DNA of 377 bases, taken from sequence record OP360900.1; one strand, 5' to 3'. Position numbers and translations under genes: made by a program. The notes beneath the pieces are model-generated. The model was not told the origin of the DNA. It made no database searches and saw nothing but the letters and a program-made list of their open reading frames with translations. Shown here piece by piece: positions 1-377 of the stretch. How positions within the stretch are numbered: position 1 is the first letter of the stretch; the number at the start of each line of letters is the position of its first letter. The DNA is from a phage.

Positions 1-377
1 CTGACTGCTGACGTTCTGATTTACGACATCGAAGACGCAATGAACCACTATGACGTGCGTTCTGAGTACACTGCACAGTTGGGTGAGTCTCTGGCTCTGG
101 CTGCTGACGGCGCGGTTCTGGCTGAAATGGCTAAGCTGTGTAACCTCCCGGCTAAAAACAACGAGAACATCGCTGGCTTGGGTACTGCAAGTGTTCTGGA
201 AGTTGGTGAAGCTGCTACGCTTCAGGGCGACCAAGTGAAGCTGGGTCAGGCAATCATCGCACAGTTGACTCTGGCTCGTGCACGTCTGACTAAGAACTAT
301 GTTCCGTCTGCTGACCGTACCTTCTACACGACTCCTGATAACTACTCCGCGATTCTGGCTGCTCTGATGCCCAACGC
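1..377 (+). CDS. 10: Major capsid protein of a T7-like phage (gp10A homolog), internal fragment, partial at both 5' and 3' ends; reading frame 1 (codon 1 = nt 1-3)
   Basis: Frame 1 is open across the entire window (125 codons, no stops). The translation contains motifs I recognise from T7 gp10A: LTADVLIYDIEDAMNHYDVRSEY at the N-terminal end and NYVP.ADR.FY..PD.YSAILAALMPN at the C-terminal end. Codon usage is strongly biased toward preferred enterobacterial codons (CTG Leu, GCT Ala, GGT Gly, CGT Arg, AAC Asn, GAC Asp), as expected for a highly expressed late phage structural gene. The start codon, T7-tag-like N-terminus, stop codon and gp10B frameshift site all lie outside the window. Identification is from recalled sequence, not from a database search. 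Confidence 0.93.
   Translation, partial: MTADVLIYDIEDAMNHYDVRSEYTAQLGESLALAADGAVLAEMAKLCNLPAKNNENIAGLGTASVLEVGEAATLQGDQVKLGQAIIAQLTLARARLTKNYVPSADRTFYTTPDNYSAILAALMPN

Follow-up and report, generated by a model that had tools for sequence, protein, structure and literature searches.

Clustered amino acid variation in a T7-like major capsid gene fragment, probably shaped by unequal purifying selection

Introduction

The stretch of phage DNA analysed here, the window, comprises the 377 nt of record OP360900.1 and encodes part of a T7-like capsid protein. The original prediction, made by comparison with T7 gp10A, described a diverged central patch at codons 49-97 (145..291) between two highly conserved flanks and proposed that the patch is a surface region of the capsid that tolerates change. 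The locus raises three questions: whether the clustering is real, whether it belongs to this phage or to its family, and what produces it. Here, we identify the fragment and its relatives, describe the distribution of change along it, and weigh the explanations against each other.

Identity of the fragment

Codon 1 starts at nt 1, and frame 1 of the plus strand is uninterrupted over all 377 nt, with a translation that begins LTADVLIYDIEDAMNHYD and ends ILAALMPN. This open frame, a match to the Pfam profile PF21703 (Gp10A-like; E 2e-41, 143 bits against a cut-off of 27, profile positions 39-162 of 279), and nucleotide identity assign the whole fragment (1..377, + strand) to the major capsid protein, gene 10A. 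A megablast search against 50,697 phage records returned 211 matching records, and among the matches listed all are major or minor capsid or head proteins. The fragment also aligns end to end with the sequences of solved structures, namely 9vvq (E 5e-57), 7y23, which is the capsid of Klebsiella phage Kp9 (2e-55), and T7 2xvr/3j7x (1e-53); the cyanophage P-SCSP1u protein 8i4l also aligns over the full fragment (E 1.5e-12). The alignment to T7 gp10A is collinear without gaps (residues 100-224; PDB 2xvr, E 1e-53) at 75% amino acid identity, a level at which the fragment should share the HK97 fold. The proposal of a T7 gp10A-type HK97-fold capsid fragment is supported by the profile match and by the nucleotide and structure-sequence homology.

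The best three nucleotide matches, each 98.7% identical over the full fragment (372/377 nt), are Salmonella phage vB_CECAV_058, Escherichia phage ErnstBeyeler (Bas67), and Salmonella phage JSS1, and five synonymous changes separate the fragment from each of them. In vB_CECAV_058 and ErnstBeyeler the fragment covers capsid residues 99-223, all 125 amino acids are identical, and the gene 9-10-11-12 neighbourhood is present where examined. The 98.7%-identical records PQ356389 and MZ501064 carry scaffold gene 9, capsid gene 10, and tail tube genes 11 and 12 in that order. A -1 frameshift near the end of 10A that yields the minor capsid protein 10B is annotated in T7, T3, phiYeO3-12, and Kvp1, at a site outside the fragment. 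All five differences from vB_CECAV_058 lie in nt 312-372, within the last 66 nt, and none in the first 311 nt; such clustering would fit the exchange of a short stretch better than mutations scattered along the fragment.

The vB_CECAV_058 and ErnstBeyeler records are classified as Berlinvirus, subfamily Studiervirinae. Further matches extend down to about 85% identity, and many of those listed carry the names of listed Berlinvirus species (JSS1, SPLA4, BP12A, P483, PP74, A7, PYPS50, Kvp1, FE44, and BA14). The fragment is thus part of the major capsid gene of a T7-like phage in the genus Berlinvirus, of a kind that has been sequenced before, a placement given by the nearest nucleotide relatives of 377 nt, the formal genus criterion being genome-wide nucleotide identity.

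A protein database search for homologues returned 11 partial proteins and no full-length capsid protein. Among them are partial T7-like capsids filed as 'hypothetical protein, partial' under Cutibacterium acnes, Escherichia coli, Xylella fastidiosa, and Enterobacter hormaechei. These bacterial entries (P0001, P0004, P0007, P0008, and P0009) come from contigs of 278-605 nt and are most likely phage carry-over or contamination in assemblies.

Clustering of the differences from T7

The fragment differs from T7 at 31 amino acids, and 22 of these lie in codons 49-97 (22/49), compared with 4/48 in codons 1-48 and 5/28 in codons 98-125. A Fisher test on codons 49-97, as named in the original prediction, gives p = 4e-5. 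Since that segment had been picked after inspection, scan statistics with 100,000 shuffles were added, and they give p = 1.8e-4 for the best 49-codon window and p = 2.1e-4 for the best 13-codon window. Therefore, the central clustering is real and non-random, and the diverged patch between conserved flanks is confirmed at p of about 2e-4. Within the patch, codons 64-76 (nt 190-228) differ from T7 at 11 of 13 residues, as expected for the stretch that had been named as most divergent, and the T7 string used for the comparison (VESKYNENIEGLGTATVIETTQNKAALTDQVALGKEIIAALTKARAAL) is exactly the real T7 sequence.

Two details of the description need qualification. The flanks were said to be nearly identical to T7 with only a few conservative changes; the right flank is less conserved than this, differing at 18% of positions, among them the non-conservative changes T->C and T->D. 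The centre was said to be free of gaps, which is correct against T7 but not against K1F-like and K11-like proteins, which are one residue shorter in this patch, or T3, which is one residue longer there.

Nucleotide identity to T7 is just 72-74%. The Nei-Gojobori estimates against T7 are dS 1.0 and dN 0.054 for the left segment, dS 1.66 and dN 0.445 for the centre, and dS 0.50 and dN 0.149 for the right segment. Because the synonymous divergence from T7 is high in the flanks too, it is reasoned that the flanks are kept by purifying selection and not by recent exchange with a T7-like donor.

It is T7, rather than the fragment, that is unusual in the centre. Central differences from the weighted family consensus number 11 for the fragment, 20 for T7, 15 for T3, and 7 for K1F, and the fragment is near the family norm there (NENIAGLG.ASVLEVG). 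As T7 is the family outlier, about two-thirds of the central contrast is T7's own divergence. The suggestion that the patch marks a distinct lineage is overstated on this account, and also because Berlinvirus phages with an identical protein fragment have already been deposited.

Constraint across the Studiervirinae

The pattern was followed in 80 related IMG/VR loci together with T7, T3, phiYeO3-12, K1F, and two Berlinviruses. The resulting alignment holds 75 distinct full-length Studiervirinae capsid proteins, and Yersinia phage Berlin was compared separately. The centre is richest in amino acid differences in every one of the 75 comparisons. For example, the left/centre/right differences from the fragment are 1/12/2 for a Kvp1-like protein, 6/16/3 for a K11-like protein, 9/14/4 for K1F, and 5/21/1 for T3. 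In the closest distinct Berlinvirus relatives all four differences are central, at codons 52, 53, 70, and 73. In the multiple alignment with T7, T3, phiYeO3-12, and K1F, substitutions are not evenly spread, and the central excess recurs.

Codon changes were counted by parsimony on a neighbour-joining tree of the 75 genes, which gives a crude count. Synonymous changes per synonymous site are nearly uniform in the left, central, and right segments (12.4, 13.9, and 10.3), whereas non-synonymous changes per site are 0.85, 3.87, and 1.66, so that the central non-synonymous rate is 4.5 times that of the left flank. The corresponding non-synonymous/synonymous ratios are 0.07, 0.28, and 0.16. The non-synonymous excess is thus limited to the centre with a ratio below 1, and this, along with the central excess in all comparisons, upholds the proposal that the central segment tolerates change.

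By the parsimony counts in the 75 genes no site lies above the neutral expectation, and codons 45, 53, 67, 70, 71, and 73 have non-synonymous counts near it. Episodic positive selection at these near-neutral sites would be compatible with so crude a count. Within Berlinvirus, even the hypervariable core has pairwise ratios of 0.2-0.46. Because the ratios are below 1, the synonymous rate is uniform, and no site passes the neutral expectation, the pattern is best described as relaxed purifying selection, without demonstrable positive selection.

In a weighted entropy profile of the whole protein (75 proteins), variability is high in four places: the N-terminal 22 residues, the patch core at T7 residues 161-190, residues 259-288, and the C-terminus. 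Comparing genera, indels occur at just three places in the protein, near the N-terminus, in the patch loop, and at residues 262-280. Residues 1-22, residues 259-288, and the C-terminus (ErnstBeyeler/T7 numbering) are at least as variable as the patch, and the indels at residues 262-280 reach 5-6 residues between genera.

Anatomy of the patch and its flanks

The patch is not uniformly variable, but contains a conserved motif, a hypervariable loop, and a helix with a variable stripe. To its left, codons 1-48 (1..144, + strand) form a strongly conserved segment, with 4/48 differences from T7 and a family ratio of 0.07. This segment (T7 residues 100-147) would comprise the strand leaving the E-loop and the long P-domain 'spine' helix; helices at codons 8-16 and 23-47 are predicted in a low-confidence AlphaFold model.

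Past the long helix, the patch opens with a variable linker, codons 49-54, LPAKNN (145..162, + strand), which is unlike T7 at codons 49, 50, 51, and 53. Codons 52-53 differ even among close Berlinviruses (KN, AS, and AN), and non-synonymous counts are high at codons 51-53. The linker is followed by a conserved motif, codons 55-61, ENIAGLG (163..183, + strand), with few non-synonymous changes. In the 75 genes E55, N56, I57, G59, and G61 have 0-1 such changes each and L60 has 4, and codon 58 (A/E) alone varies much. I57, G59, L60, and G61 are also invariant in alignment A1. The ENI(A/E)GLG motif is probably a structurally required turn.

Next to the motif, codons 62-69, TASVLEVG (184..207, + strand), form a probable beta-strand that is partly variable, as judged from a low-confidence model and the change counts. 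Non-synonymous changes are frequent at codons 62, 64, 67, and 68 and few at codons 63, 65, and 66, and a second, low-confidence model places a strand at codons 61-67. The alternation of variability expected of a beta-strand is not significant over codons 60-69 (p = 0.73).

The core of the finding is a hypervariable, indel-tolerant loop, codons 70-80, EAATLQGDQVK (208..240, + strand), which is defined by entropy and indels. The column entropy here is the highest in the fragment (T7 residues 161-180, mean 1.1-1.4 bits), and indels of 1-3 residues between genera fall at codons 68-76.

Codons 80-100, KLGQAIIAQLTLARARLTKNY (238..300, + strand), are predicted to form an amphipathic helix with one variable face, based on periodicity and low-confidence models. 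Non-synonymous counts peak at codons 80, 83, 87/88, 91, 95, and 98, and the power spectrum of the counts over codons 80-100 has its maximum at 98 degrees per residue (p = 0.0006 against shuffles). A period of this kind is characteristic of an alpha-helix of which one face is free. Two low-confidence models place a helix at codons 78-100 and 75-97, respectively. The long helix of the left flank is without such a stripe because there is hardly any variation in it.

The right segment, codons 98-125 (292..375, + strand), is conserved, with 5/28 differences from T7 and a family ratio of 0.16. Within it, codons 98, 104, and 107 stand out as single variable positions.

Structure and surface exposure

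AlphaFold models of the 125-aa fragment (12-row alignment) and of P0005, a 207-aa partial homologue, reach pLDDT 45 and 44, respectively, too poor to derive exposure. A Foldseek search of the poor P0005 model against the PDB places T7 3j7v first, with TM 0.36 and rmsd 14.7. The secondary structure of the models, both the helices and the strand near codons 61-67, is consistent with the periodicity, which is weak evidence given their low confidence. Within the patch, variable positions are more polar than fixed ones (mean hydropathy -0.75 versus +1.09, p = 0.04). Together, the helical stripe, the polarity, and the indel-tolerant loop fit loops and one free helix face, and lend indirect support to the view that the tolerant positions of the patch may face the solvent in the assembled capsid.

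Two of the other variable regions, the N-terminal tail and the C-terminus, are reported to be on the exterior of the mature T7 capsid (PMC7695174; PMC12814771), which also fits a tolerant, probably solvent-facing patch. Co-evolution of the patch with the externalised N-terminal tail was also considered and is unlikely, since Berlinviruses that are 3/294 nt apart upstream differ at 12 patch positions.

Explanations of the contrast between centre and flanks

In our judgement the contrast very probably reflects unequal purifying selection along the gene 10A HK97-fold capsid protein of Berlinvirus. If the flanks are assigned to the right domains, the long P-domain helix on the left and the A-domain core on the right would make packing contacts that barely tolerate change. 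Codons 49-97 would instead be made up of a linker, a strand, a loop that accepts indels, and an amphipathic helix with one free face, all of which leave room for side-chain replacement. The supply of mutations, measured as synonymous change, is equal everywhere, and only the acceptance of amino acid changes differs.

It is less easily reconciled with an equal supply that, within Berlinvirus, pairwise dS in the centre is about twice that of the left flank: 0.36-0.73, with one pair at 1.33, compared with 0.12-0.32, with one pair at 0.54. Such values would be expected if the central patch were a recombination cassette, imported from another T7-like lineage and with a history unlike that of the flanks. 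Gene 10 is indeed mosaic. ErnstBeyeler and Kvp1-like or BP12A-like genes have 0-8% synonymous-codon differences over codons 1-120 and 20-44% thereafter, and T7, T3, and K1F each have a low-divergence stretch of their own elsewhere in the gene. The centre of the fragment is also nearer to K1F (14 differences) than to T7 (20-22), and the left flank has the reverse order (9 versus 4); however, the K1F resemblance is one of shared ancestral or consensus sequence. An approximate mosaic junction between Berlinvirus lineages can be placed at 39..97 (+ strand), where a Kvp1-like gene (L014) parts from ErnstBeyeler: the two differ at 3/294 nt upstream of the fragment and at 56/377 nt within it, and the differences begin at nt 39-97. 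This junction lies in the left flank and not at the edges of the patch. Over the whole tree synonymous change per site is uniform in the three segments, and no lineage has a low synonymous divergence in the centre, where K1F stands at 41-61%. The central amino acid excess is present in every pair, which a single transfer cannot yield. Because the excess recurs in all pairs, the junction is off the patch edges, and synonymous change is uniform, it is reasoned that recombination modulates some of the contrasts and does not create the pattern. An imported cassette is therefore improbable, and the higher central dS within Berlinvirus is more readily taken as a contribution that recombination appears to make to some comparisons.

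Two observations concern the history of gene 10 more widely. Capsid codons 1-98 are nearly identical across Berlinvirus species (3-8/294 nt for several), and beyond a sharp mosaic junction the remainder of gene 10 diverges by 8-16%, which indicates that recombination has probably homogenised the 5' third of the Berlinvirus capsid gene in recent times. Stretches of low synonymous divergence from ErnstBeyeler are found at codons of about 190-290 in T7, 51-80 in T3, and 301-320 in K1F, and point to putative ancient inter-genus exchanges within gene 10.

Capsid proteins are also targets of bacterial defence: PifA has been linked to T7 gp10, and CapRel to the capsid protein of another phage. The patch could be under diversifying selection by an external recogniser, either an abortive-infection sensor of the capsid or environmental binders. 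Gene 10 is noted in the T7 record as involved in F exclusion, and capsid proteins are documented as triggers of bacterial immunity (PMC9712102). Several patch sites change at nearly the neutral expectation, and the closest relatives differ at no codons other than the four central ones given above. The segment-wide ratio of 0.28, the pairwise ratios of the hypervariable core, and the lack of any site beyond the neutral expectation argue against it. In addition, the BASEL authors attribute PifA sensitivity mainly to gp1.2 and describe the tested Berlinviruses as insensitive, and no link leads from this segment to any sensor. Diversifying selection of this kind has little to recommend it as an explanation. 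A more specific form, in which the patch (T7 residues about 148-196) would be a recognition surface, for example for PifA-like sensing, with alleles shuffled by recombination of gene 10, is an equally long shot.

A second function of the DNA or RNA that constrains the flanks or drives central change, as an overlapping frame or a structured RNA, can be dismissed almost entirely: mechanical ORFs do exist at 50-238 on the + strand (62 aa) and 48-170 on the - strand (40 aa), but both are interrupted by stops in the close relative L004 and in T7, the 50-238 frame is also broken in L006, T3, and K1F, the frames are open in just 21/82 (+) and 38/82 (-) relatives, and synonymous sites are free to evolve in all segments. 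Overlapping ORFs in other frames were accordingly rejected on the stop codons in relatives, and a structured RNA on the result that the fragment has no Rfam match at E <= 1.

Significance and comparison with known systems

This is a known gene of a known genus, with a protein already deposited and ordinary among-site rate variation that matters little in itself. Variation concentrated in a few A-domain loops and surface positions is what is expected for HK97-fold capsid proteins. The use of the finding is practical. For typing T7-like phages, no part of gene 10 discriminates better than the patch together with residues 259-288, and the patch would be a plausible place for engineered substitutions or short insertions, if its exposure is confirmed on a structure.

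Among the known systems, Yersinia phage Berlin, the type of the genus, shares 114/125 amino acids and 83% of nucleotides with the fragment, with the same patch length, and 7 of its 11 changes are central. T3 and phiYeO3-12 (Teetrevirus) share 98/126 amino acids but have one extra residue and a clearly dissimilar loop (LTLVKPTTGSLTDPVE). The tentative affinity to T3 and Yersinia phages that had been proposed is correct insofar as the genus is named after Yersinia phage Berlin; T3 itself is only slightly nearer to the fragment than T7, and K1F is as near as T3 (98/126 for T3, 98/125 for K1F, and 94/125 for T7). T7 gp10A (2xvr, 3izg, 3j7v, 3j7w, and 3j7x) belongs to the same Pfam family and aligns without gaps, the difference being that 22 of the 31 changes fall in the centre.

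A possible parallel to the patch is found in the A-domain loops of related capsids, the A-loop and A-pocket of T7 and loops A1-A4 of actinobacteriophages, where variation is likewise concentrated in a few loops. The study bioRxiv 10.1101/2022.09.09.507160 describes related HK97-fold capsids whose diversity lies in a few A-domain loops and whose helices and sheets superpose. The differences between the capsids of Klebsiella phage H5 and T7 are similarly located in A-domain loops (PMC11481518).
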